This document shows, one piece after another, positions 1 through 13,604 of a stretch of DNA of 13,879 nucleotides; the first letter of the stretch is position 1, and every line of letters starts with the position of its first letter. The translations under genes were made by a program, and so were the position numbers. Below the pieces are notes generated by a model. That model was not told the DNA's origin, made no database searches, and saw nothing but the letters and a program-made list of their open reading frames with translations. The stretch is from an uncultured archaeon. Its GTDB lineage: Archaea > Asgardarchaeota > Lokiarchaeia > Sigyniarchaeales > SOKP01. The stretch spans positions 1-13,879 of the forward strand of contig CAZALK010000035.1 of the NCBI GenBank assembly GCA_964486045.1. The letters are read 5' to 3'.

Positions 1-1
1 A

Positions 2-76
2 TTACAAGTATATTTAATTGGCAGTTCTAATTACACCGATTTTTATCTTTCAGGTTTTTTAAATTGCAATTTCTAA
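2..76 (+). CDS. Possible 3' end of a gene running in from the left edge (LQVYLIGSSNYTDFYLSGFLNCNF*)
   Basis: Frame 2 is open from the window edge to TAA at 74-76. Too short to confirm. Confidence 0.3.
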   Translation, partial: LQVYLIGSSNYTDFYLSGFLNCNF

Positions 77-153
77 CCTATAATCGATTAATTATCTTTA
101 TTATTTATAAAAATTAAGGAGTCAGATTTTCAAATGTCAGAGTCTAAAATGCA

Positions 154-290
154 TAAATTTATTCTATTTTTCTTAGAAATTCCATCTCATCTTCAAACTT
201 AGTATTTAAAAGTTATCCATGAATTTGAGATAAGTTTTAAATTAGCCATGTATGGAAAAAATTAAATGTCAGAAATGCAAACTTATCTAA
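154..290 (+). repeat. 137-bp direct repeat, copy A (promoter + first 8 codons MSEMQTYL)
   Basis: Manual alignment with 1941-2077 shows no gaps and 4 mismatches. Confidence 0.97.
209..241 (+). promoter_or_regulatory. Candidate operator AAAGTTATC-N11-GATAAGTTT abutting a TATA-like TTTTAAA (copy A)
   Basis: 8/9 inverted repeat at 209-217/229-237. TTTTAAA at 235-241 lies ~25 nt before the ATG at 266, the spacing expected for a leaderless archaeal transcript. Confidence 0.5.
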
Positions 291-349
291 TATCTGTATT
301 GATTGTCTTTTTCATCATTGTGCTTTATTTATATTTAACTTTAGTTTGA
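266..349 (+). CDS. Candidate 27-aa single-TM micropeptide MSEMQTYLISVLIVFFIIVLYLYLTLV
   Basis: Starts at the duplicated ATG and has an uninterrupted ~20-residue hydrophobic stretch. Its 3' end overlaps the stop of the convergent 341..1183 gene. Confidence 0.35.
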   Translation: MSEMQTYLISVLIVFFIIVLYLYLTLV

Positions 350-1183
350 TTCCTTTCTCTTTCCGCAAAACCTACAGAATTGAGCAAATGGTTCCAAAAA
401 TTCACCACATTTTCCACAATATTCATCATTTGATATCTCCAGATTATTAAGATCTTTATCTAGTAATGCCTTATATCTTTGTTTTGGAACGATTTCATAT
501 TTATCTAATAAATCCCCCCAAGCATGTAATTCATGATACCCATTCAACCATTTATTAGTTTGATTTAGTATAAAAAAGGATGAGATATTTAAAGGGACAA
601 AGAAAATCAAAATAAATATTATCCAAATATTAAAACCAGACATTATTATCGGGGGTAAGAGAATGGTAGTCATAAATATATTGTATAATACATAATACTT
701 TTCATGTTTCAAAATTAATCCCACTTTTACTGTCATTGATACATTATTATCTTGAAATAAGGGATCCCGCAGTTTGCGCCATTTAACAAATCTAGATTTG
801 GTTGTATAAATCTTGACCATCATCAAGATTTCTTCAGATAAGTAATTTAAATTCTGTTTTTCTTTTAAAAAATATTCTCGACGAATAACAATTGTCTTCT
901 TTATAAACCTAATTAAATTGTATAAAACAAAACTTACAAGTCCAATAAAAGGAGGAAGTGTGAAAAATAAGAATACAATAGAAAATAGCATAGATCCTAA
1001 TATCAGAGAAAATAGCATAGATCCTAATATCAGAGGAAATATCAGAGAAAATACCAACATCAAACCAAATATTTGCTGAAGTATTAAAAATGTTTGGGTC
1101 TTACGGATTTGTCTTGAGAGAAGATTATGATTTTTCTTCAATTTTTCATCAATTTCATCAGGAATTTCTATTTGTGGATTCAT
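341..1183 (-). CDS. Membrane protein (~4 TM) with C-terminal zinc ribbon
   Basis: 280-aa ORF with two hydrophobic hairpins and a C-terminal CGKC-x10-CRFC motif. Confidence 0.9.
   Translation of the reverse strand: MNPQIEIPDEIDEKLKKNHNLLSRQIRKTQTFLILQQIFGLMLVFSLIFPLILGSMLFSLILGSMLFSIVFLFFTLPPFIGLVSFVLYNLIRFIKKTIVIRREYFLKEKQNLNYLSEEILMMVKIYTTKSRFVKWRKLRDPLFQDNNVSMTVKVGLILKHEKYYVLYNIFMTTILLPPIIMSGFNIWIIFILIFFVPLNISSFFILNQTNKWLNGYHELHAWGDLLDKYEIVPKQRYKALLDKDLNNLEISNDEYCGKCGEFLEPFAQFCRFCGKRKESN
980..1035. repeat. Perfect 27-bp in-frame tandem duplication (LILGSMLFS x2)
   Basis: AGAAAATAGCATAGATCCTAATATCAG occurs at 980-1006 and 1007-1033, with a partial third match at 1038-1053. Confidence 0.95.
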
Positions 1184-1223
1184 AAGTAAAATAGTAATTT
1201 TGAGTATATAAGCAAATATGGAA

Positions 1224-1767
1224 CTAAGGTCCTTCTGTTCCTATTATTGAAATTTTATCCTTTAGTAGAAGTAATGCTATTAAAAAATAAAATATTAAAA
1301 ATCCTAGAGAAATCCAAAAGAAAATAAAAACACTGTTAGAAAACCAGACTAACAGGAATATAAAAAAAAAAGGCAATAAAATCATTTGAACAATTAAAAT
1401 TTCAAAGATAATTGTTTTAAAATCTTTTTTGTCTTCCGTTTTTTTGTATTTGTCTTTTTCACTTTTGATCTTGCTCTTTTCCTTATGAAGAAAAAATTAT
1501 TGCCCAGATGAATTTAGAGAACTTGTTCCATTGTTTACAGAAATGTTAAAAGAGATTTCTTGATTAAATGATCTCCATGGAAAAATAACATATTGTAATG
1601 TTCCAGTATGCTGATCTAGATGTCGAGTCTCTTGATTTCTCAGGAGGATTAAAATAAAAAAAACCAATAAGTAGTGATGCGATACCAACAATTATCAGGT
1701 TTAGGTTAATTGCCGTACTAAAAAATGGGTATAAGTTGGAGACATGATTGATAAGTATTCGAGACAC
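1224..1767 (-). pseudogene. Disrupted membrane protein gene
   Basis: ORFs 1564..1767 and 1497..1691 can be joined by a frameshift at the A8 run (1656-1663). After the TAA at 1497-1499 the same frame stays open for 90 more codons (FFLHKEKSKIKSEKDKYKKTEDKKDFKTIIFEILIVQMILLPFFFIFLLVWFSNSVFIFFWISLGFLIFYFLIALLLLKDKISIIGTEGP*). Confidence 0.65.
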
Positions 1768-3570: not shown

Positions 3571-3786
3571 ATGGTCATCATTTTAAAAAAGACAAAATAT
3601 ATAATAGGATTGGAAGTAATATTCGGAATTGTAAGCTTAGTCTCGATTTATACTGCTAATACCAGCTTAGCATGAGGAACAAGACGACCAATAGAATTTG
3701 ATTATGTAGCAGGTATAAGTTTTATAATCATGGCAATGATACTATTAATATATCTATTATCAGAATATTTAAACCGAGAAAAATGA
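3571..3786 (+). pseudogene. Small 2-TM membrane protein gene with one in-frame TGA
   Basis: Translates as MVIILKKTKYIIGLEVIFGIVSLVSIYTANTSLA*GTRRPIEFDYVAGISFIIMAMILLIYLLSEYLNREK*. The TGA at 3673-3675 lies in the loop between two hydrophobic segments. Confidence 0.6.
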
Positions 3787-4028
3787 TTCCAATAAAACAA
3801 ATTTTAGTTATTGGATGATTATCCCGGCAAAGGACTCGGAAAATTTGTTTCGTTTTTAGATTGGGAGTTATATCAAATTGATATAGGTGTAATAATGAAG
3901 GTATATATTAGATTGCTGATTTAAGCGATTACGTTATTGATCAGAAAAGTTACGAACTTCTTTGGCATAGACGGTATGATAATCTACATAAAGAATTAAT
4001 GAAGAAGAGGGTTAAGAAAAAGAATTGA
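3783..4028 (+). pseudogene. Decayed gene remnant
   Basis: ATG overlaps the previous stop (ATGA). Protein-like pieces lie in different frames: LLDDYPGKGLGKFVSFLDWELYQIDIG and NNEGIY*IADLSDYVIDQKSYELLWHRRYDNLHKELMKKRVKKKN*. Confidence 0.4.
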
Positions 4029-4037
4029 TCCTGAATC

Positions 4038-4760
4038 CTATTGTACCGATAGACTTGCTCCAGGAATATAAACAACCATAATTTGGAAATTCGAATTAAA
4101 AATTAAGTATTGTTCAATTGTTAGATGTTCAGATTCCCAAAAATTATAAGCAAAATTATATTTTAAATTCATTTTAACTAGAAAAATATTGCTTAATATA
4201 ATCGTAGAGTTATAATTAACAGTAGAGGGTATTTCTGTAAAATTTAAATACCAATTTCCCGACCAAAATGAAGGTCTATCTCCCCAGTGAGTCCACTCAG
4301 CGGCAAATATCTCTGTGTGGTCTGCATACTCTGCTTTAATGATTGCATCATTGTTATAGTTCAGATATATCAAAGATTCATTGGTGACTTCTAATGAATA
4401 AATAAAATTTTGCTGATAATTTGAAACTAAGTGAAATTTTGTTTTATCTTTATCAATTTTCAGCTTTAAGGATTCTATGAATCCTCTGTCGATATGATAT
4501 TTATAATTATGAAAAGATCCACTTAAGTTTTGAATTTCACCCCAAATGTCGCGAGATTTACAATACTTTAGATAATCAAACAATTCACTTTTTTCTACTA
4601 TGCTCTCAAAATTTTGAATGTTTGCTCCATAAGTTATCTTATAGTAGATTCTAATAAGAATTAAGGAATTATTAACAAATAACGATAAAGGGGTGATTGT
4701 ACCTGTTAGAAAGATTATTATGATGGTAATTGTAAGTTTTCTTTTGATTTTCACTCTCAC
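4038..4760 (-). CDS. Hypothetical exported or N-terminally anchored protein
   Basis: 240 aa with a basic N-terminus and hydrophobic helix. The rest is Asn/Tyr-rich with several N-x-S/T sequons. Confidence 0.88.
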   Translation of the reverse strand: MRVKIKRKLTITIIIIFLTGTITPLSLFVNNSLILIRIYYKITYGANIQNFESIVEKSELFDYLKYCKSRDIWGEIQNLSGSFHNYKYHIDRGFIESLKLKIDKDKTKFHLVSNYQQNFIYSLEVTNESLIYLNYNNDAIIKAEYADHTEIFAAEWTHWGDRPSFWSGNWYLNFTEIPSTVNYNSTIILSNIFLVKMNLKYNFAYNFWESEHLTIEQYLIFNSNFQIMVVYIPGASLSVQ

Positions 4761-4803
4761 CTTTTATTGGAATAAATTGCTCTTACATCTTTTATATTTT
4801 ACA

Positions 4804-5664
4804 TTAATTTTTAAGAGTTTTTATCGATGTATCCCATTCTCTCAAAGCTGATACAATGTTTAAGAAATGCTCTTTAAAATTAATTGGAGTTGAGTATTCA
4901 TAGAAATACAAATATTTTTTTATATTATATGTTGAACGAGTAAATCTTCCCTTTCTGGGAAGCCATCTTTTTTCTGATATCTCTTTATGGATTTTGAATC
5001 CTGAATCATTTGATTTTAAACATAATTTATCGGAAATCATAAAAATTCTTATCATTTGTGACTCCACTTCTCTCCGCTTTATTAGTTTACATTGTAGATC
5101 AAATTGCACGAAGTAAGGGGATTTTAATTTGATAATAAATTTATCATGTAATACTCCTAATAGGATTGGGATACTAATACTTGAAAAAATATAGATTAGC
5201 AGTAATCTAATATTGAGAGAAATAATCACATAATCTAGAGAATATGAAATCCCAATATTCATTACAATAAAGAAGATAAGAGAGAAACTATTAAACAAAT
5301 AAAAATTTAGTCTTGTTTTGTACTTTCTTCGCAATTCAAAACCTAAGTGATGCAATTCTTCCTTAAGAAAATTAACCAATGTTGGAGAAAACCTGTTGTA
5401 GGATAATAAGAAGAAGTGGATGAATAAAAAGATTAAGAAAAGAAACCAAAAAACAATTTGATCAGATAAATATTTTCCAGAACCTTGCTCATAAGGTATC
5501 ATAAATAATTGGTATATCATATATAAACCAATAAGTGTAATTATTAGAAGATATACCTTAAGTAGATTCTTTAAATATTCAGTTTTGATAATCGCAAAAA
5601 AGTTTGGACCCAGATCATTGCTCTCAAGGTTTAATTCGCCGTGTGTGTCATTTAAATCTTTCAC
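4804..5664 (-). CDS. Hypothetical 4-TM membrane protein with soluble C-terminal domain
   Basis: 286 aa with four hydrophobic segments. Its GTG start overlaps the TGA of the upstream gene (GTGA, 5661-5664). Confidence 0.9.
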   Translation of the reverse strand: MKDLNDTHGELNLESNDLGPNFFAIIKTEYLKNLLKVYLLIITLIGLYMIYQLFMIPYEQGSGKYLSDQIVFWFLFLIFLFIHFFLLSYNRFSPTLVNFLKEELHHLGFELRRKYKTRLNFYLFNSFSLIFFIVMNIGISYSLDYVIISLNIRLLLIYIFSSISIPILLGVLHDKFIIKLKSPYFVQFDLQCKLIKRREVESQMIRIFMISDKLCLKSNDSGFKIHKEISEKRWLPRKGRFTRSTYNIKKYLYFYEYSTPINFKEHFLNIVSALREWDTSIKTLKN

Positions 5665-6122
5665 TTTTTATCACCCCACACTTTTGTTTTATTTTTTTCT
5701 TCCTCTGGGGATGTCCAAAACTTTTGAATAATTTCCCGAAATAACTCAAAATCGGGATTATCTTTTTCATTCAATTTAACCATATGAAACTTACTTGTTT
5801 TTTTCTTGATTTCAATATAGTTTTGCTCTAACAAAAAATCAAAAGCATGGATTAATTTTTCGTGTCTATCTATATTTAAACATTTCATTATATCAGTCTT
5901 AGATATAATTTCTTCAGAAGCTTGTAACTTTGCTAAGCTCATTAATACTTGACCCCCTCTTAGAGAAAACACAGTTGTTAGTTTATCAAAAATTCTACAA
6001 ATAGTAGTCATTAAAGCCTCTAATTCATTATAAAAACTGATTTTATCGCGATTTTTAAGCTCTAAGGCTTCGTCAAAACGATCTAAGCCATATTTCTTAA
6101 TAAAATCATTTATTGAATTCAT
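5661..6122 (-). CDS. Probable winged-helix DNA-binding protein
   Basis: The pattern QVLMSLAKL...ISKTDIMKCLNIDRHEKLIHAFDFLLEQNYIEIKKKTSKFHMVKL fits three helices plus a beta wing. The family is not identifiable. Confidence 0.75.
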   Translation of the reverse strand: MNSINDFIKKYGLDRFDEALELKNRDKISFYNELEALMTTICRIFDKLTTVFSLRGGQVLMSLAKLQASEEIISKTDIMKCLNIDRHEKLIHAFDFLLEQNYIEIKKKTSKFHMVKLNEKDNPDFELFREIIQKFWTSPEEEKNKTKVWGDKK

Positions 6123-6203
6123 CTTAAATATAAATCATGGAATAAAAATTATTAAAACCTTCTATACTGAATTTTTGTGATTTAATCTATATATTTTGAT
6201 TAT

Positions 6204-6273
6204 ACATGATTCATGTTTAATATTACATACTTCTTGTATTACATAACAAGGATTAGTGCTGAATCTTTATAAA
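6204..6273. promoter_or_regulatory. Divergent promoter region with candidate operators
   Basis: Palindrome ACATGA-T-TCATGT (6204-6216), direct repeat TATTACATA (6221-6229, 6237-6245) and palindromic TATA-like TTTATAAA (6266-6273), all between divergent genes. Confidence 0.45.
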
Positions 6274-6363
6274 CTAACTAAACTATTTAGGATTATCAAA
6301 GTTTTAACTGAAATTTAACACTTAAAAATACATTTAATAACGGTAGGTAATTAAATACTAAAG

Positions 6364-7662
6364 ATGAATACAAAAAGACTTATTCTCATTTTATTTTTTA
6401 CCATTATTATATTTGGGAATCCTTTTCTTATTATTGAAGGTTCTGCATTAACTTATTCAAATCCTTCTACAACTCCAGTATGGTCATATTCAACAGGAAA
6501 TAGATATATTTCTGCGGTTGCTATTTCTTCAGATGGTAGCTATATTGCAGCTACAGATGAAAATTTAGTATATGATATTTCAATAAACGCAAATGGAACA
6601 TTGTTTTTATTTGATAATTCAAACTCTTCGACAAAGCTTCCATTATGGAATTATTCTATTTCAAATAGTTTTTCTTCTCTAGCAATTTCTGGAAATGGTT
6701 CTTATATTGTAGCAGGGGGAAGTTACATAGATAAAACAGTTTACTTGTTTAATAGTTCAATTCCTACACCTGAATGGGCTTATTCTGCCAATGGAAGGAT
6801 TTATGATGTAGCGATTTCAGATGATGATGATTATATTGCTGCTGCAAGCGGTCCACGGTATAAATCTTTTATTTTTAATATTACTGAATCTACCCCTATT
6901 AAGGGCTACTCAACAACGGGATTAACGCTTCGAGTTGCGATCTCTTCAAATGGGAGTTTTATGGCGGCAACCGATAATGCTGGAAAGCTTTATTTCTTCA
7001 ATACTACTAATAATTCACCTGAATGGACCTTTTCTCTATCTGGAGATATGAGTACTTCCCTATCTATATCGGCTGATGGTAATTATATAGCTTCGGGGGG
7101 TGATAAAGTGTATTTTTTTAGGAGACAAAGCTCAATTCCATTATGGACCAACAATGCACCGGATCACGTTAGTTCCATAAAAATTTCTCAAGATGGAAAT
7201 TATATAGTCGCTGGTGGTGACTATCGTGATACAAAAGTATATTTTTTTAATCGAAATAATTCAATTCCCGAATGGACATATTCAACAAAATCAGAAATTA
7301 CCTCAGTTGCTATCTCATCTAATGGGGATTATATAGTTGCCCTAACCAGAAATTATCGGATTTATTTATTTAATAAATATAGTTCAACACCAATATGGAG
7401 GTATAGATTGGATGGATATACTAATGCAAATTATGATTCTGGTTTAGATATTTCTTCAGATGGTAAATATATTGTAGTAGGAGGGAGACACAGGATTTAT
7501 TTATTTGATCGAGATATCGTTACTGCTCCTAAATTAATTATCCCGGGATATAACCTTTTTGTCATAGTTTTGATGATAGGTATCATGCTTCTAAGCAGTG
7601 TAATATCTTTATTTTTTAAATTTAGAAAAAATAAAGCAACCTTTCTAATCAATTCAAAATAA
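6364..7662 (+). CDS. Cell-surface WD40/PQQ-like beta-propeller with Loki-CTERM-type sorting tail
   Basis: Signal peptide, then eight P-x-W-x-Y / AISxDGxYI repeats. The C-terminus has IPGY + TM helix + KFRKNK. Confidence 0.92.
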   Translation: MNTKRLILILFFTIIIFGNPFLIIEGSALTYSNPSTTPVWSYSTGNRYISAVAISSDGSYIAATDENLVYDISINANGTLFLFDNSNSSTKLPLWNYSISNSFSSLAISGNGSYIVAGGSYIDKTVYLFNSSIPTPEWAYSANGRIYDVAISDDDDYIAAASGPRYKSFIFNITESTPIKGYSTTGLTLRVAISSNGSFMAATDNAGKLYFFNTTNNSPEWTFSLSGDMSTSLSISADGNYIASGGDKVYFFRRQSSIPLWTNNAPDHVSSIKISQDGNYIVAGGDYRDTKVYFFNRNNSIPEWTYSTKSEITSVAISSNGDYIVALTRNYRIYLFNKYSSTPIWRYRLDGYTNANYDSGLDISSDGKYIVVGGRHRIYLFDRDIVTAPKLIIPGYNLFVIVLMIGIMLLSSVISLFFKFRKNKATFLINSK

Positions 7663-7682
7663 TAACAATTCAAAATTAATGG

Positions 7683-9170
7683 ATGTTTCATATGGAAGAG
7701 AATGAAAAAAATAAACCGATTATAAGCAGTTCTCAATTAACGTTGTTTAAATTTGAACTAAGTCGTTCACAGGTCAGTTTATTCCTAGTTTTATCTGTTA
7801 TGGGTATCTTTATGGTCTCATTCCTTATATCTGGAGATATTTTCATCAATTTATTCCAATTTATATTCTCTACAGTCCCACGTTATTTAGAAAATCCAGG
7901 AGTCTATCATGAAGACTATCTATTCTATAATTCTATACCAATCATTATACGAATAGTTGTCAATATCATATTTATTTCCTTGAGTCTGTATAGTTTGAAA
8001 AGAATTCTAAAAAATAGAACAAGTGAAAATAGACCTAAACAGAAAATTATTTCACAAAAGAGAGTTGTAAATTGGTTTGGTTTAAAAATTTCTCACGGTC
8101 AATCCTTATTTATTTTCAGTGCATCCTTCGCAGGATTAATCTTCATGATACAACTTATTTTGGAACATTTTATATATCCTTTCTCCATGTTTAACCTCCT
8201 GACATCTATTAGTACGATTCCAACCGGTCCAAATCAAGGGATAGGGAGTACCCTATTATCAGACAATATTCCTCTTATAATACAATCAATATTTTTGATA
8301 GTATGTCTTTACAGTCTCTTTATAACTCGAAGAGGTAAACCTATAACTCCTTCAACAAAGGTTACAAAGAATTATGCTCTCCTTATTTTTATTGGTTCGT
8401 TTATCGTATTCATAATCTTCTCAGCCAGAATCTTTTCCCACCTTGCTCTATTCAACAATTTTGTATCGAATCTTTTAGGGATGTCATATACTGCTCCTAA
8501 TTCATATCAAAATAATGACTTTATTAGAACAGTACTATTTGTTAGTGTATCTCTAGTTCTTATGATCTCTAGTTTTTTTCTTAAAGAAAGAAATCATAAA
8601 GATAGGAAAACTCTTGATGAGTTCTCATGGATTCGTATAAAATTAAGCCCCCATAGAACCACAATCTTACTCTCGTCAGCTCTTATCTGTGCTGTTTTTT
8701 TTACTCATTTTTATCTGACTTATGTTTTTATGGTTGGAGATCTGCTTTTCTTCTCAATTCTTGATATTTCATTTCATGTTGTTTTTATTCCGATAATCAT
8801 TTTTTCCTATTATCCAATTGGGAAAATATTAGCAAACCATCGTTTTGAAAAAGCTGTAGAAAGTATTAATAATTCTGGGGAATTTAAGACTAAATGGTTT
8901 AAATTTCGCTTAGACAAAATAAATTCAGTTATCTTACTTTCTGCTAGTAGTGCATTAGTTGTTTTTTATCTTATTGAGCTAATATCCATGAATATGAGTG
9001 CTCAAATATTTTACTCGAACATTGACCTATTTGAATCATATACACTATTTAGCTTTCCCTTTATTATCATTTTTATATTCCTAGCGATTATTGTTAATAT
9101 TTATACTATAATAAAAACACTTCCTTCAATTAAGGACTCTAAATCACAAAAAATAGAAAAAGTAGATTAA
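7683..9170 (+). CDS. Polytopic membrane protein (~10 TM) built of repeated 2-TM units
   Basis: 495 aa with a recurrent motif preceding TM hairpins: TLFKFELSRSQVSLFLVLS, NWFGLKISHGQSLFIFSAS, SWIRIKLSPHRTTILLSSA, KWFKFRLDKINSVILLSAS. Confidence 0.9.
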   Translation: MFHMEENEKNKPIISSSQLTLFKFELSRSQVSLFLVLSVMGIFMVSFLISGDIFINLFQFIFSTVPRYLENPGVYHEDYLFYNSIPIIIRIVVNIIFISLSLYSLKRILKNRTSENRPKQKIISQKRVVNWFGLKISHGQSLFIFSASFAGLIFMIQLILEHFIYPFSMFNLLTSISTIPTGPNQGIGSTLLSDNIPLIIQSIFLIVCLYSLFITRRGKPITPSTKVTKNYALLIFIGSFIVFIIFSARIFSHLALFNNFVSNLLGMSYTAPNSYQNNDFIRTVLFVSVSLVLMISSFFLKERNHKDRKTLDEFSWIRIKLSPHRTTILLSSALICAVFFTHFYLTYVFMVGDLLFFSILDISFHVVFIPIIIFSYYPIGKILANHRFEKAVESINNSGEFKTKWFKFRLDKINSVILLSASSALVVFYLIELISMNMSAQIFYSNIDLFESYTLFSFPFIIIFIFLAIIVNIYTIIKTLPSIKDSKSQKIEKVD

Positions 9171-9176
9171 TAGGAA

Positions 9177-9196
9177 CCATCATCCGGTTTTGATGG
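9177..9196. other. Short intergenic hairpin CCATCA-N8-TGATGG
   Basis: 6-bp perfect stem just after the 7683..9170 stop. There is no downstream U-tract on the + strand. Confidence 0.3.
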
Positions 9197-9217
9197 AAGA
9201 GAAAAGGTAAGAATAAA

Positions 9218-9634
9218 ATGAACATAATCACTGAACTCTTGCGTTATATTATTATCATAATAATAGGGATAATACTTATCAGATGGTATGAGAGAAAAAA
9301 AGGGTGGAACCCTCGATTTAGAACCTCTCTCCTTTTTATTCTTGGTTGGAGAACTCTAATATTCATCTTTGTATTAATTATAACCTTTTATCTTGATCTG
9401 GCTTTTTTGAATGAATTTAGCCTTTATTTTATTTATTCGATTATTTTGGTAATCTTATCGTTTTTTATAAGCATCTTTCTTGGAGTGAAGATTTTTAATC
9501 TTGTTTTTAGACAAAAAATGCAGGAATCCATAGTCATTATTCTCATAATCACCATCATAGAAATGATCCTTGAGAATTTTATTTTATATTCTATCTTAAT
9601 TCCTGAAGCTATAATCTTTAGCTTTAATCTCTAA
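9218..9634 (+). CDS. Small 4-TM hypothetical membrane protein
   Basis: 138 aa with four hydrophobic segments separated by basic loops. Confidence 0.85.
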   Translation: MNIITELLRYIIIIIIGIILIRWYERKKGWNPRFRTSLLFILGWRTLIFIFVLIITFYLDLAFLNEFSLYFIYSIILVILSFFISIFLGVKIFNLVFRQKMQESIVIILIITIIEMILENFILYSILIPEAIIFSFNL

Positions 9635-9827
9635 CTGCGCACAGCGCTAAATACGCTATATAATTCAGATTTTATACTTCCCATTAATAATGAGGAGAGA
9701 TGCTAGAAGAGATAAGAAATCTTCTGTTTGATACGGTATAAGCTCTGAGACTTAAAAATGAGGACTAGTAAATTTTTAATTATTCTAATTCTAATATAAT
9801 TAGGTTTTATTTTTATCTATTCCAGCA

Positions 9828-10343
9828 ATGTACGAAATTAAAAAGAGTACTATAAAAGGAAAAGGCGTGTATGCAACACGAGATATTGTGAAGAATGAAC
9901 ACTTATTCCATATTGACTTAAATCAACTTCCGAGTTATACTTTGGATGAAATCGCTGGAAATCCGAAGTTAGATGCTAAAGGTGATCATTCAGATTATGT
10001 TGGTAATGGAAGGTATGTTATTGATTTTTCTCCACCATCATATATTAATCATTCTTGTTCTCCGAACTGCTATGAAAAAATGAAGACAATTGTTATAAAA
10101 GACATTTATGCACTAAGAGATATTAAGAAAGGTGAGGAATTAACTACCGATTACACATTAACCGCTTTAGACCAATTTGCCGGTAAAGGTTTTTGGGTGA
10201 TGGATTGCAAGTGTGAAAGTAAAAACTGTCGAGGAAAGGTTACTGGTGACTTCTTCACCCTATCAAAGGAGATTCAACGAAAATTTTATGGCAACCTTCC
10301 ATCATCAATAATTAAAAAATATAAAGATCTTTTAATAAGTTAG
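9828..10343 (+). CDS. SET-domain protein-lysine methyltransferase with post-SET zinc motif
   Basis: Motifs KGKGVYATRDI, YINHSCSPNC and ALRDIKKGEELTTDY, plus post-SET CKCESKNCRG. Confidence 0.96.
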   Translation: MYEIKKSTIKGKGVYATRDIVKNEHLFHIDLNQLPSYTLDEIAGNPKLDAKGDHSDYVGNGRYVIDFSPPSYINHSCSPNCYEKMKTIVIKDIYALRDIKKGEELTTDYTLTALDQFAGKGFWVMDCKCESKNCRGKVTGDFFTLSKEIQRKFYGNLPSSIIKKYKDLLIS

Positions 10344-10397: not shown

Positions 10398-10504
10398 AAA
10401 GGTAGTGATCTCTGCCCAGAGTCTCAAGAGGAGACTAAGCCAATACAAAATGTGAGATTAAATTAGCGTATGGAAAACCATACTACCAAAAGACAAAAAT
10501 CCAG
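10398..10504. ncRNA. Structured dispersed element, copy 1 (candidate ncRNA or non-autonomous element; minus strand slightly favoured)
   Basis: Homologous to 13395-13497: 31/38 identity in the first block and an identical final 23 nt. Hairpins are AGTCTC-N5-GAGACT and GTATGG-AAAA-CCATAC. The repeat itself is certain; RNA status is inference. Confidence 0.55.
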
Positions 10505-10634
10505 ATTGAAAAATGAATAAATTCACACCAAATTGAGAAGATTTAAAAAGAATTAATACTATATAACATACAATATTAGTAAATAAATAGTATAAGATTC
10601 TCACTATTTTAAGAATTTAAAGTTGACATAAAGA

Positions 10635-11189
10635 TTGTTAAAGCAAATTAAAGATTTCAATCCAAAAGCGTTAATTAATTCTGAGATATACAGGCAGTAT
10701 GTAGAGAATTTTGAATCAGAAATCTTAAGAGGGATCTCTAAGTTAATTACATTACATACTATCAAGCAGAAGGGGGAAGAGGGAATTTATGGTTACAAAT
10801 TAGCTCAAGATTTAAAGAAGGATCTGAAGAAGGCACTAATTATCAAGGAAGGGACATTATATCCCATTCTACGAAAGTTGAGAGCAGATGGATTACTTTT
10901 TTCAAAAAAGAAAGAATTTAATGGGCGACTCCGGAGCTACCATATAATTACTCCCAATGGGATAGATATATATAATCATTTAATGGGTTTTTTGACGAAT
11001 TTAATCTCTTCTCTTTCCCAAATTGTAGAAATTGAAATAGAGTTGAATAATGATAATTATCTCATTTGTCCTAATTGTTTTAATCGTATCGAGAGTAATA
11101 AAAACAGTATAGGATATTGTAAAGCGTGTGGATTGAATTTGGATCATTTTCAACATAAAGAAAAAAAAATAGGACTTGATAAGAAATGA
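10635..11189 (+). CDS. PadR-family transcriptional regulator with C-terminal zinc ribbon
   Basis: Motifs EILRG, IYGYKLAQDL, IKEGTLYPILRKLRADGLL and GRLRSYHIITPNG, plus CPNC-x13-CKAC. Confidence 0.95.
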   Translation: MLKQIKDFNPKALINSEIYRQYVENFESEILRGISKLITLHTIKQKGEEGIYGYKLAQDLKKDLKKALIIKEGTLYPILRKLRADGLLFSKKKEFNGRLRSYHIITPNGIDIYNHLMGFLTNLISSLSQIVEIEIELNNDNYLICPNCFNRIESNKNSIGYCKACGLNLDHFQHKEKKIGLDKK

Positions 11190-13117
11190 CTATTAAAGAA
11201 GCTGAAATCATAAGTAATTACCTAGGTTTAATCAAAAAAAACCTCCCTTTATCCATTAAATTGAAGAAAAATGAGATGAGAGACATTTTAGATGAAATCG
11301 AGGAACATATATGGGAAAAAGTTATTGAAAGTGCAGGTGATAAAGAACCAACTGAAATTGATATTCAAATTACACTCTCTCAAATGGGAGAGCCAAAAGA
11401 AATAGCAACCAGCTTCGTAAGTAAAAGTACTCCCTATGTTTATATTAGCGAGGAGTTATATCCCACCTATAAAAGATACCGTAAAACGGTTTTTTGGTCA
11501 TTTCTTTTATGGGTAATCTTGTTTTTCGCACCACGGCCAATGGGTGTTGGATATATGTACTTATATGAATTGGTAGAAAATCCCTTGTATAATTATATTT
11601 TGATTATGCCCATAGTAGTAATTTCTATTTTAATAATAATAGGAATCATATTTTGTTATTTATCAATCACCGGATACGTCCCGTATGAAATAAGAGCATC
11701 TAAACTAAAAAAAAGATATATAAACCATAAATATTGGCATAAACTTGTTTTCAAACCATATTTTCAAAATGCAATCTCAATTTTATTTTTAACATTTTTA
11801 TTTAGTGCATTGTCCATTTTTCTAGTGAGATTTTCAATTTTTACGATTCTATTTGTTGTGCTTTCTATAACCAAATTTTTACGAGGATTTTATAGTAGAA
11901 AATCTGTAAATTGGCAAAAATTACTAATCGTAATTGATATATTTCTTATAAGTGTTGTTTTTCTGGATCTGCTTCTTTTGAGGAGTGATTATTATTATCA
12001 CATTCAGAATTTTCTAATTATATGTTTGTTCTTCTATATTTACTATGAAATACTCACATTTACAACATTTAGAGATAGAAAAGATCTTTATTTAAAGGAA
12101 TTGAGTATTGTTGATCGGTTACGCAAAAAGGAAAGTTTAATCGGGGATTTAAAAAGTAATATTATCCCTAATACCCAAAAATTTTCAGATTCAAATAATG
12201 CTTTTGGTTTGGAACTTGAAGAAAAAATAAGAACCTTCTTGAAAAAAGCAAGAAGGAAACTCCCTTTATGGCTGAAAATGTCAAAAAAAGGTGAAATAAT
12301 TCATAATCTCGATGATGAAATAAGAGAAAACATTCAAGAATTTGAAGCAACCAAAACCCTTACTGAAGAGAATTTGAATCAATTAATTTCGGAATTTGAA
12401 ATCTATATCTCAACTGAAGTATGGCCTTGGTATGTCAAAACAACTCCAAGAATTTATATCTCAAAGGAAGTATGGCCTTGGTTTGTAAAAACATTAAAAG
12501 CGATTTTTGTATACTTCATAATTCTCACAATCTTTGTAGTTGCTTTGTCAAGTCTAGTACTCGTGGTGATTTCTTTATTTATTAGGATTTTATTAATTTT
12601 GTTGACATGCACAGTGATTTTAATTACCAGAGCCTTTATATTTTTCTCACTGAATGGTTTCAATTTTAGAAGAAAAGAATCTTTACGAAAAGTTAGTATT
12701 TATCGTTATCCTATCTGGGAAACTCTCTTTGCAGTAATTTATGTAACAAGTGGTATAATAATACTTTCTAGTGAAATTAATTCAGGAGAATTATTTACAA
12801 ACTCTCGGAGTTTTACTTTAATCCTTATAATTGTTGTGTCTCTTTTGTTATTAGGGCTAGTAAAATCATTAAAAATGGTTTTTAAAAAAAAGGGACTAGT
12901 ATTAAAGTCATTTCTAATAATTTCTAGCCTTATACTTGGTCTAGTTATAAATTTTCTTATTGAATATCAATTCAGCACCTTTAATCCCTTTATTCGTTCT
13001 TATCATAGTATGTATGTGTTCTCCTTCCTATTTCTTCCAATTAATATAGAAATAATATACGAAATCTTCCATCTTTTCTTCCAAATAAAACCTTTGGAGA
13101 AGAAAGTATTTAAATAG
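11186..13117 (+). CDS. Membrane protein with two tandem HAAS-like + multi-TM modules
   Basis: N-terminal ISNYLGLIKKNLP...DILDEIEEHIWE...MGEPKEIA is the HAAS signature. A second copy starts at aa ~345 (IRTFLKKARRKLP...NLDDEIRENI). ATGA overlap with PadR. Confidence 0.9.
   Translation: MTIKEAEIISNYLGLIKKNLPLSIKLKKNEMRDILDEIEEHIWEKVIESAGDKEPTEIDIQITLSQMGEPKEIATSFVSKSTPYVYISEELYPTYKRYRKTVFWSFLLWVILFFAPRPMGVGYMYLYELVENPLYNYILIMPIVVISILIIIGIIFCYLSITGYVPYEIRASKLKKRYINHKYWHKLVFKPYFQNAISILFLTFLFSALSIFLVRFSIFTILFVVLSITKFLRGFYSRKSVNWQKLLIVIDIFLISVVFLDLLLLRSDYYYHIQNFLIICLFFYIYYEILTFTTFRDRKDLYLKELSIVDRLRKKESLIGDLKSNIIPNTQKFSDSNNAFGLELEEKIRTFLKKARRKLPLWLKMSKKGEIIHNLDDEIRENIQEFEATKTLTEENLNQLISEFEIYISTEVWPWYVKTTPRIYISKEVWPWFVKTLKAIFVYFIILTIFVVALSSLVLVVISLFIRILLILLTCTVILITRAFIFFSLNGFNFRRKESLRKVSIYRYPIWETLFAVIYVTSGIIILSSEINSGELFTNSRSFTLILIIVVSLLLLGLVKSLKMVFKKKGLVLKSFLIISSLILGLVINFLIEYQFSTFNPFIRSYHSMYVFSFLFLPINIEIIYEIFHLFFQIKPLEKKVFK
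12401..12493 (+). repeat. Diverged 51-bp-period in-frame duplication (IYISTEVWPWYVKT / IYISKEVWPWFVKT)
   Basis: Units start at 12401 and 12452. GAAGTATGGCCTTGGT is identical in both. Confidence 0.93.
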
Positions 13118-13394
13118 ATTAGGGTTTTTGCAATTTTAAGTTCAGAAACATACATTTAAATTAAGTATGATAATATTACTCTTAAAGGATTCATTTTGAA
13201 AAGATGCAGGGTTAGGCAGTGAGCACCATAATTGTCTGTAAATTCTTGTCTAATATACTAAAAATATGAAGCCTATTTATTTGCTTGTTTTTAAAAAACA
13301 ATTACGAAAAATCTGGACTTTAAAACTCTCTCCTGTAAACAAAAAATCTTCTAAAAAATTCAGAATCTTTAATAAATCAATCTTTGAAAATGTT

Positions 13395-13497
13395 AAAGGT
13401 GATGCTCACTACCCAGAGTCTCAATAAGAGACAAACCAATATAAGGGTGAGAAATTGTAAGTGTAACAAGTTACACTACCAAAAGACAAAAATCCAG
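13395..13497. ncRNA. Structured dispersed element, copy 2
   Basis: Same orientation as copy 1. Hairpins are GTCTC-N5-GAGAC and AGTGTAA-CAAG-TTACACT; the invariant block is ACTACCAAAAGACAAAAATCCAG. Confidence 0.55.
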
Positions 13498-13604
13498 GGG
13501 CGGATAGTGAACATCATATTTGATTTTAAATCTTTGTCTATGCATTATATACGCCTTAATTATTTAATTCCTTGCATTTTAAAAAATAATGGGAATATTC
13601 ACCC

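Follow-up and report, generated by a model that had tools for sequence, protein, structure and literature searches.

A candidate family of small structured RNA genes, probably read from the minus strand, in a family of Lokiarchaeia and a virus-like replicon

The contig CAZALK010000035.1 (GenBank assembly GCA_964486045.1), whose 13,879 nucleotides (nt) are here called the window, comes from the genome of an uncultured Lokiarchaeia (Asgard) archaeon. The genome is 5.18 Mb long with 31% GC, is 99% complete and has an estimated contamination of 7.8%. Two repeats lie in the window, copy 1 (starting at 10399) and copy 2 (13396–13520). On balance, we lean towards reading them as genes for small structured noncoding RNAs (ncRNAs) of a family not described before, transcribed from the minus strand and likely acting in trans. 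An earlier sequence-only reading had described shared blocks, a shared 23-mer and two hairpins in these repeats; all were confirmed where it had placed them, and a match of this kind is far more than chance would give. Both copies contain the identical 23-mer ACTACCAAAAGACAAAAATCCAG (10482–10504 and 13475–13497). The length of about 105 nt given by the same reading did not hold, as the element measures about 125 nt and copy 2 reaches position 13520.

When the copies from this genome were aligned, the element of about 125 nt resolved into a closing stem (P1), two hairpins (P2 and P3) and an invariant single strand of 22 nt, and its predicted fold is a three-way junction. P1 has 13–17 base pairs (bp) and is made by both ends of the element. 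P2, a 5-bp hairpin whose loop has 5–8 nt, is followed by a junction strand, while P3 has about 7 bp, and from it the invariant strand runs back into P1. On the plus strand, P1 is followed by a conserved CAT and then by T-rich DNA. The individual copies each adopt the P1/P2/P3 fold when folded alone. With a GC content of about 40%, compared with 31% for the intergenic DNA, the element forms a GC-enriched, stem-rich island.

Copy 2 is intact, belongs to subfamily A, takes this fold by itself and is probably encoded, with all its parts, on the minus strand. It scores 151.9 bits with a first covariance model, built from six copies and used for the copy counts and the genome survey, and 126.5 bits with a second model, which yielded an alignment of 98 sequences. 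Its P1 arms lie at 13400–13414 and 13502–13516, the latter followed by the CAT of the plus strand; their pairs covary, and two C.A mismatches on the plus strand become G.U pairs on the minus strand. P2 occupies 13418–13432 (GTCTC, loop AATAA, GAGAC) and the covarying P3 13460–13477 (AGTGTAA, loop CAAG, TTACACT). The invariant strand (13478–13499) reads ACCAAAAGACAAAAATCCAGGG on the plus and CCCUGGAUUUUUGUCUUUUGGU on the minus strand. The outer stems proposed earlier (ATCTC/GAGAT in copy 1 and CTCAC/GTGAG in copy 2) are not the closing helix, a role that belongs to P1 (13400–13414/13502–13516). Beyond P1, a flanking 13-mer (13527–13539, minus strand) is complementary to the invariant strand and forms 13 of 13 pairs as minus-strand RNA; it would sit in a 5′ leader if the RNA is read from that strand.

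Covariation carries the fold. Among 45 distinct sequences, standard pairs fill 93.4% of the cells, compared with 67.2% in shuffled controls, with double changes at 23 of the 26 pairs, and pairings slid by 1–3 columns gave 30–46%; both kinds of control, here and in the larger alignment, leave phylogenetic relatedness in place. In the alignment of 98 sequences from the second model, 90.2% of the cells are paired (61.5% when shuffled) and double changes occur at 26 of the 26 pairs, with slid controls at 31–39%. Compensatory changes affect all five pairs of P2 across the family, and the 18 strongest mutual-information pairs all fall within P1, P2 or P3. The same scan showed no extra helix or pseudoknot above the known pairs and no covarying partner of the invariant strand inside the RNA. 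A pairing of the 5′ arm of P1 with the P2–P3 junction, which corresponds to the outer stem proposed earlier, was rejected, as pairing within a copy had no advantage over pairing across copies (p=0.25 and 0.50). The helices cannot be products of neutral decay, because each of them has been rewritten several times. The predicted fold is thus one maintained by compensatory changes, under selection that keeps the structure and not the helix sequence, and to this extent the earlier claim of selection on structure was borne out. The accompanying idea of a constant scaffold in which a single hairpin varies was not: all three helices vary, and the 22-nt junction strand alone is fixed, being invariant in the aligned full-length copies of this genome and nearly unchanged in the sequences of the family.

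What had been taken for a two-copy element occurs, according to the first model, in 18 copies in its own genome, a count that may be inflated because of the long near-identical stretches in the assembly and the contamination of 7.8% estimated for it. Window positions 1–1352, 1932–2724, 3856–4771 and 4072–9636 are themselves 92–99% identical to contigs 37, 16, 7 and 22 of the assembly; together with the contamination estimate, these identities suggest either that segments were duplicated recently or that the bin contains two close strains. The 23-mer has 12 exact and two one-mismatch occurrences in the genome, always inside the larger element. The survey covered 126 genomes of the same GTDB family, 13 of the sister family and 11 of other families in the class. 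The genus sampled first has model matches in 23 of its 24 genomes, with 1–6 copies each. In the family as a whole, 119 of the 126 genomes (12 of the 13 genera) have matches, as does one of the 13 in the sister family, and none was found in the 11 genomes searched from other families. At least 117 contigs from Asgard metagenome-assembled genomes, mostly labelled Promethearchaeota, contain an exact 20-mer of the invariant strand. Two closed genomes hold a single copy each. The further copies in this and other Asgard genomes include two loci that are syntenic across genera.

At these two loci, which are orthologous between species and between genera, the element is conserved with sharp borders amid flanks that have diverged freely. 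At locus I, it sits in about 750 nt of intergenic DNA, with a radical SAM gene (HMPTM-type zinc ribbon) on one side and the gene of a small membrane protein with four transmembrane segments on the other, an arrangement that recurs in 36–37 elements. The membrane protein, of about 130 amino acids (aa), is encoded about 255 nt downstream on the plus strand, and the tes-like radical SAM gene lies about 360 nt away on the minus strand. In several species, the plus-side flank of locus I also contains, some 45 nt past P1, a block reading CCTATTTTG(T)TT that is complementary to AAACAAAATAGG in the P2–P3 junction of the element; either a second pairing of the leader type or what is left of an inverted partial copy may explain it. 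In locus II, the element follows the gene for a 281-aa hypothetical protein by 60–90 nt. The remaining 16 copies of this genome, and locus II, have unrelated neighbours. Taken over all loci, the neighbours that were scanned encode radical SAM, membrane, MarR, Ldh_2 and PadR proteins. As partners of the RNA, the 281-aa protein (apparently longin/roadblock-like) and the 130-aa membrane protein were discarded, neither looking like an RNA binder.

A complete copy, although divergent, was also found outside the cellular genomes, at 102474–102589 of the virus-like record IMGVR_UViG_3300029288_000001, which is complete (224,826 bp) and has direct terminal repeats. It lies between tightly packed small open reading frames (ORFs) of the minus strand, within a long run of minus-strand ORFs. 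A gene for a 212-aa HNH endonuclease is about 370 nt away. Matches to a 16-mer in 87 other viral contigs were not accepted as real copies; the model scored only two of them, and weakly, and the one that was read falls within a coding frame.

Copy 1, earlier taken for a complete element, lacks its 3′ stem arm, which sits 2.7 kb away at 13210–13229. The larger fragment (10399–10504, minus strand) contains one P1 arm, P2 (10421–10435, GTCTC-N5-GAGAC), P3 (GTATGG/CCATAC, 10468–10483) and the invariant strand up to ATCCAG, and matches the model with 80.9 bits without a second P1 arm. Its twin on contig 14 (3655–3783, minus strand; the uninterrupted copy is also placed at 3678–3816) is complete and 93% identical. 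In the twin, the invariant strand is followed by GG, the stem arm and the downstream flank; this sequence is found in the window from 13210, and because the continuation of the twin resumes there, positions 10505–13209 are read as an insertion. The small fragment (13210–13229, minus strand) comprises GG and the absent P1 arm (GGTTAGGCAGTGAGCACCAT), aligns with the 3′ end of the intact contig 14 copy and is the sole orphan arm in the genome; a 13-mer of the leader type, complementary to the invariant strand, follows at 13239–13251 (minus strand).

The insertion (plus strand, 2.7 kb) has CAG at both junctions and entered exactly after the invariant TCCAG. Two plus-strand genes lie in it: a PadR-family regulator (10635–11189; Pfam PF03551, E 2.9e-12) and a 643-aa HAAS-domain protein (11186–13117; PF22564, E 1e-7), whose gene overlaps the PadR stop. 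No significant terminal inverted repeats were found at its ends (a 9-nt match, p=0.22), nor a second copy elsewhere in the genome. On contig 14, two elements stand 288 nt apart with no gene between them, a tandem spacing that we take as the ancestral arrangement. Copy 1 is thus a predicted pseudogene, inactivated by the PadR–HAAS insertion, and the annotation of the window is corrected to a split gene interrupted recently relative to its intact twin on contig 14. Two minus-strand TTTAAA boxes had been noted upstream of the copies; the one near 10542 falls inside the inserted DNA, and the one near 13525 is too near the stem for a TATA box. Two other copies in the genome are damaged in or at the invariant stretch. 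One, at 36640–36770 of contig 22, is broken right after CCAG. The other, at 180954–181073 of contig 4 and orthologous to locus II, has 30 nt inserted in the invariant strand, with the break 6 nt before the point that follows CCAG. These 30 nt start with TTCTGACG, end with AAATCGG and form a small hairpin of their own; a bulge-helix-bulge intron was considered, and no such motif was seen.

The RNA is probably read from the minus strand. The interior wobble-type pairs of P1 comprise 37 G.U on the minus strand and 7 on the plus strand (48 clusters at 88% identity), those of P2 and P3 comprise 29 and 9 (unique stems), and the alignment of 98 sequences gives 113 against 50. The minus-strand hints in the earlier reading agree with these family-wide counts. 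Certain copies would have three mismatches in a P1 of 16 bp if read on the plus strand, and the minus strand is the more stably folded in 82 of 114 sequences. In all eight copies of subfamily A, a 13-nt segment lying 9–10 nt beyond P1 pairs with the invariant strand at 13 of 13 positions, in minus-strand RNA only. Its four variants differ solely by A or G opposite U, which on the plus strand would be A.C mismatches. Subfamily B′ is conserved for at least 115 nt beyond the element, on the minus-upstream side only, and the orientation of the virus copy agrees with the minus-strand ORFs around it. Scans for the position of a TATA box on both sides gave no peak and did not decide the strand. In public RNA data, a single metatranscriptome run contained any of the stretch, in one 151-nt contig of depth 2; this contig covers 13460–13500, then continues as the copy of a relative, and is uninformative on strand, ends and level.

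In the mechanism that we propose, the RNA would act in trans, and the helices of its three-way junction would hold out the U-rich invariant strand as a putative binding site. The contrast between helices that vary and covary and a junction strand that alone stays fixed is consistent with such a role. An Sm-like (Lsm) protein is the first candidate for its presumed conserved partner, because GAUUUUUGU and CUUUUGG of the minus strand resemble Sm-type sites. In subfamily A, the 5′ leader would mask the invariant strand by 13 base pairs. The virus copy would represent a trans-acting cellular function worth bringing along. A search of the genome for a long antisense target of the invariant strand, with wobble allowed, gave no convincing match on either strand.

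Several known systems share features with the element. Like the RNAs bound by Sm, Lsm and Hfq proteins, it is small, has several paralogues and, if read on the minus strand, would show a single-stranded U-tract of the AUUUUUG type between helices and a short U-rich 3′ end. The Sm-site consensus, RAU(4–6)GR, and the U7 site, AAUUUGUCUAG, serve as the comparison, and the motif of the element differs from Sm sites in ending with U, not a purine. Unlike small nuclear RNAs (snRNAs), the element has ends that pair into a long closing stem, and it has no sequence or Rfam relation to them. With Y RNAs it shares a length of about 100–130 nt, ends that form a long stem with a bulge, a U-rich 3′ end, internal strands that are pyrimidine-rich on the minus strand, several paralogues and a copy in a virus genome. 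Its conserved part is however the junction strand and not the stem, and no Y RNA or YrlA of Rfam matches it; a TROVE/Ro60 gene was not found in its own genome. GC-rich small RNAs of AT-rich archaea, the HgcC/E/F/G class, were reportedly described by Klein et al. in 2002. The element resembles them as a GC-enriched orphan ncRNA of an archaeon in AT-rich intergenic DNA, but it has no Rfam match to them and differs in fold and taxon. Finally, as with genes for transfer RNA (tRNA) and transfer-messenger RNA (tmRNA), it is a small structured RNA gene that is carried by a virus-like genome and interrupted at a fixed point by foreign DNA; unlike at those targets, the insertion neither restores the gene nor carries an integrase, and the element is not a tRNA. 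As far as its sequence and predicted fold tell, it belongs to none of the Sm/Lsm-bound, Y-like or HgcC-class kinds. A bolder version would make it an snRNA-like Asgard family whose invariant Sm-site-like U-tract is presented by the three-way junction, bound by Sm-like proteins and masked in certain paralogues by their own leader, and which the 225-kb virus has borrowed; we regard this version as speculative and unlikely to hold in full.

Some observations weigh against a minus-strand RNA with such a binding site. The U-rich motif GAUUUUUGU may do no more than resemble an Sm site, the consensus of which ends in a purine; the minus strand between P1 and P3, if correctly assigned, reads GGAUUUUUGUC invariantly and has U at the final position. 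Masking by the leader is, family-wide, no better than by DNA further upstream (p=0.06) and is clear in subfamily A only. Runs of at least five T within 20 nt after P1 are present in 47% of the copies on the plus side, compared with 17% on the minus side, which is how an archaeal terminator would look if the gene were on the plus strand. Read on that strand, the unpaired regions are rich in A and G, as is usual for folded RNAs, and both neighbours in locus II are plus-strand genes.

The last of these points favour an RNA of the same family and fold transcribed from the plus strand, whose promoter would lie some 25 nt ahead of P1 and whose oligo-U terminator would immediately follow P1. The A-rich ACCAAAAGACAAAAAUCCAGGG would then be a tertiary-contact site or a site for a ligand or protein. 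A depletion of A-runs after P1 and a weak A/T peak at −27 to −19 upstream on the plus strand fit this possibility. So do the tRNA genes used to calibrate flank composition, which have T-runs downstream and rarely A-runs upstream; at n=12 they are too few for a calibration. The pairing itself speaks for the other strand, as P1, P2 and P3 have 2 to 5 times more A.C than G.U on the plus strand, certain copies have the three mismatches in 16 bp of P1 already mentioned, and the flank pairing of subfamily A would include 3–4 A.C mismatches. Furthermore, subfamily B′ would conserve just its downstream flank, past a T6 run that would end the plus-strand transcript, and the virus copy would be antisense to its gene cluster. 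We consider a plus-strand transcript a serious alternative, at a clearly lower probability than a minus-strand one.

It is also conceivable that the signal lies in the DNA, either as a single strand folded into a site of recombination or integration or as a module resembling miniature inverted-repeat transposable elements (MITEs), with the invariant stretch as the target of a recombinase. Copies that are broken in or at the edge of this stretch (copy 1 and those on contigs 22 and 4) point in this direction, and so does the occurrence of the element in multiple copies, often at contig ends. The strand asymmetry of the wobble pairs fits a folded DNA strand as well, because G.T is tolerated. The sequence-only reading had likewise considered a mobile module, a transposon end or a single-stranded DNA signal. 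However, the main loci are syntenic across genera, two closed genomes have single copies, and the surplus copies in this genome sit in segmental duplications 90–95% identical between contigs. Neither TnpA/TnpB of IS200/IS605 nor IS110, integrase or reverse transcriptase genes, which that reading had suggested might adjoin the copies, were found among the neighbours that were clustered or scanned against Pfam, and no terminal inverted repeats were detected at the insertion. The insertion junctions also lack the second half-element expected from site-specific integration between two sites. A DNA-level signal is therefore very unlikely.

Still less probable is a cis-acting leader, such as a riboswitch-like element or attenuator, for the membrane protein or radical SAM gene of locus I or for the genes of locus II. 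Adjacency to the first two genes is conserved in 36–37 loci, and three-way junctions of this kind, with conserved strands between the helices, are typical of aptamers. Nevertheless, the 250–500 nt to either start codon are long for a leader, the virus copy lies between unrelated small ORFs, and the tandem copies stand 288 nt apart without a gene between them. The gene downstream is not the same from copy to copy, which makes a leader function unlikely. We give almost no credence to a short coding gene on the minus strand, for instance for a 14-aa peptide ending in LDFCLLVV. An ATG follows P1 in most copies and a frame of 14–15 codons is open in the commonest types, but the reading frame between this ATG and the invariant stretch is not kept, being split 47/27/14 across copies, 25 copies have no ATG, and there is no synonymous variation in the 22-nt stretch, in contrast to the helices, which covary.

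The identity of the element could not be assigned to any known RNA, in agreement with the earlier reading. Covariance models of Rfam 15, run on both strands of the window, gave no match on the element at E values up to 10, and ten copies scanned alone with lax filters produced just a chance match of 12.6 bits. ARAGORN found no tRNA or tmRNA gene in the window or in the virus loci. The model for 5S ribosomal RNA (rRNA; RF00001) has no match in this genome, and its weak matches in relatives of the genus fall at other loci; the arms of the element, hairpins of 5–7 bp with long junction strands, are unlike helices II–III and IV–V of 5S. With RF00001, three relatives in the genus, two of them closed genomes, score a sub-threshold 23–28 bits and two genomes of the sister family 54–64 bits; the 5S rRNA of the genus may be unusually divergent, or may be unassembled in the present genome. 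A box C/D small RNA was rejected: by inspection, subfamily A has AUGAUGU on the minus strand and no CUGA beside the terminal stem, the other subfamilies have AUGACUC, and no C/D model matches the element.

Ends of IS200/IS605 elements and the guide RNAs of TnpB or IscB were set aside, since the IS605-orfB and HEARO models of Rfam are silent and no tnpA, tnpB or iscB gene stood among the neighbours that were scanned; in addition, the variable stretch after the invariant strand, where a guide would lie, is paired in P1. A MITE is contradicted by the orthologous positions kept across genera and by repeat units that extend beyond P1 on one or both sides; no terminal inverted repeats were found, and target duplications of individual copies were not searched. 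Against an integron attC site, no R″/R′ boxes (RYYYAAC ... GTTRRRY) are present at the ends (by inspection), most copies are solitary and the break that resembles a crossover falls within the element, about 20 nt in; no search was made for intI itself. For a CRISPR repeat or trans-activating CRISPR RNA, the one clear CRISPR-like array found, on contig 32, has an unrelated repeat. This array (502–1956) has 23 repeats, and the repeat contains CCGGTACACCCCCACGTG. Searches of the literature by sequence and by keyword returned no publication on this RNA, and the family, as far as these comparisons reach, is in no RNA catalogue.

Other features of the window lie apart from the element. Upstream of it, positions 6364–7662 encode a WD40 beta-propeller protein and 9828–10343 a SET-domain protein. 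The repeat families D1, D2, D4 and D5 are accounted for, because they are internal DNA repeats of the WD40 protein. A repeat of about 150 nt at 137–290 and 1923–2077 is 94% identical within the window and also present on contigs 16 and 37. On the minus strand, positions 1691–1756, which have a CUGA close to the 3′ end, give a weak match of the C/D-box type (29 bits, E 4.8) and may be a real box C/D small RNA; an 84% copy of 1636–1758 is found on contig 2.

Asgard archaea are the closest prokaryotic relatives of eukaryotes, and to our knowledge next to nothing is known of their ncRNAs beyond rRNA, tRNA and the RNAs of RNase P and the signal recognition particle. The elements described here would add a well-defined RNA gene family that nearly all surveyed genomes of one Lokiarchaeia family possess, some of them in many copies, and that a large virus-like replicon carries. 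The fixed 22-nt strand, the rewritten helices, the wide retention and the virus copy point to an important trans-acting function. If the snRNA-like version were true, the family would represent an archaeal small ribonucleoprotein of a so far unknown kind.

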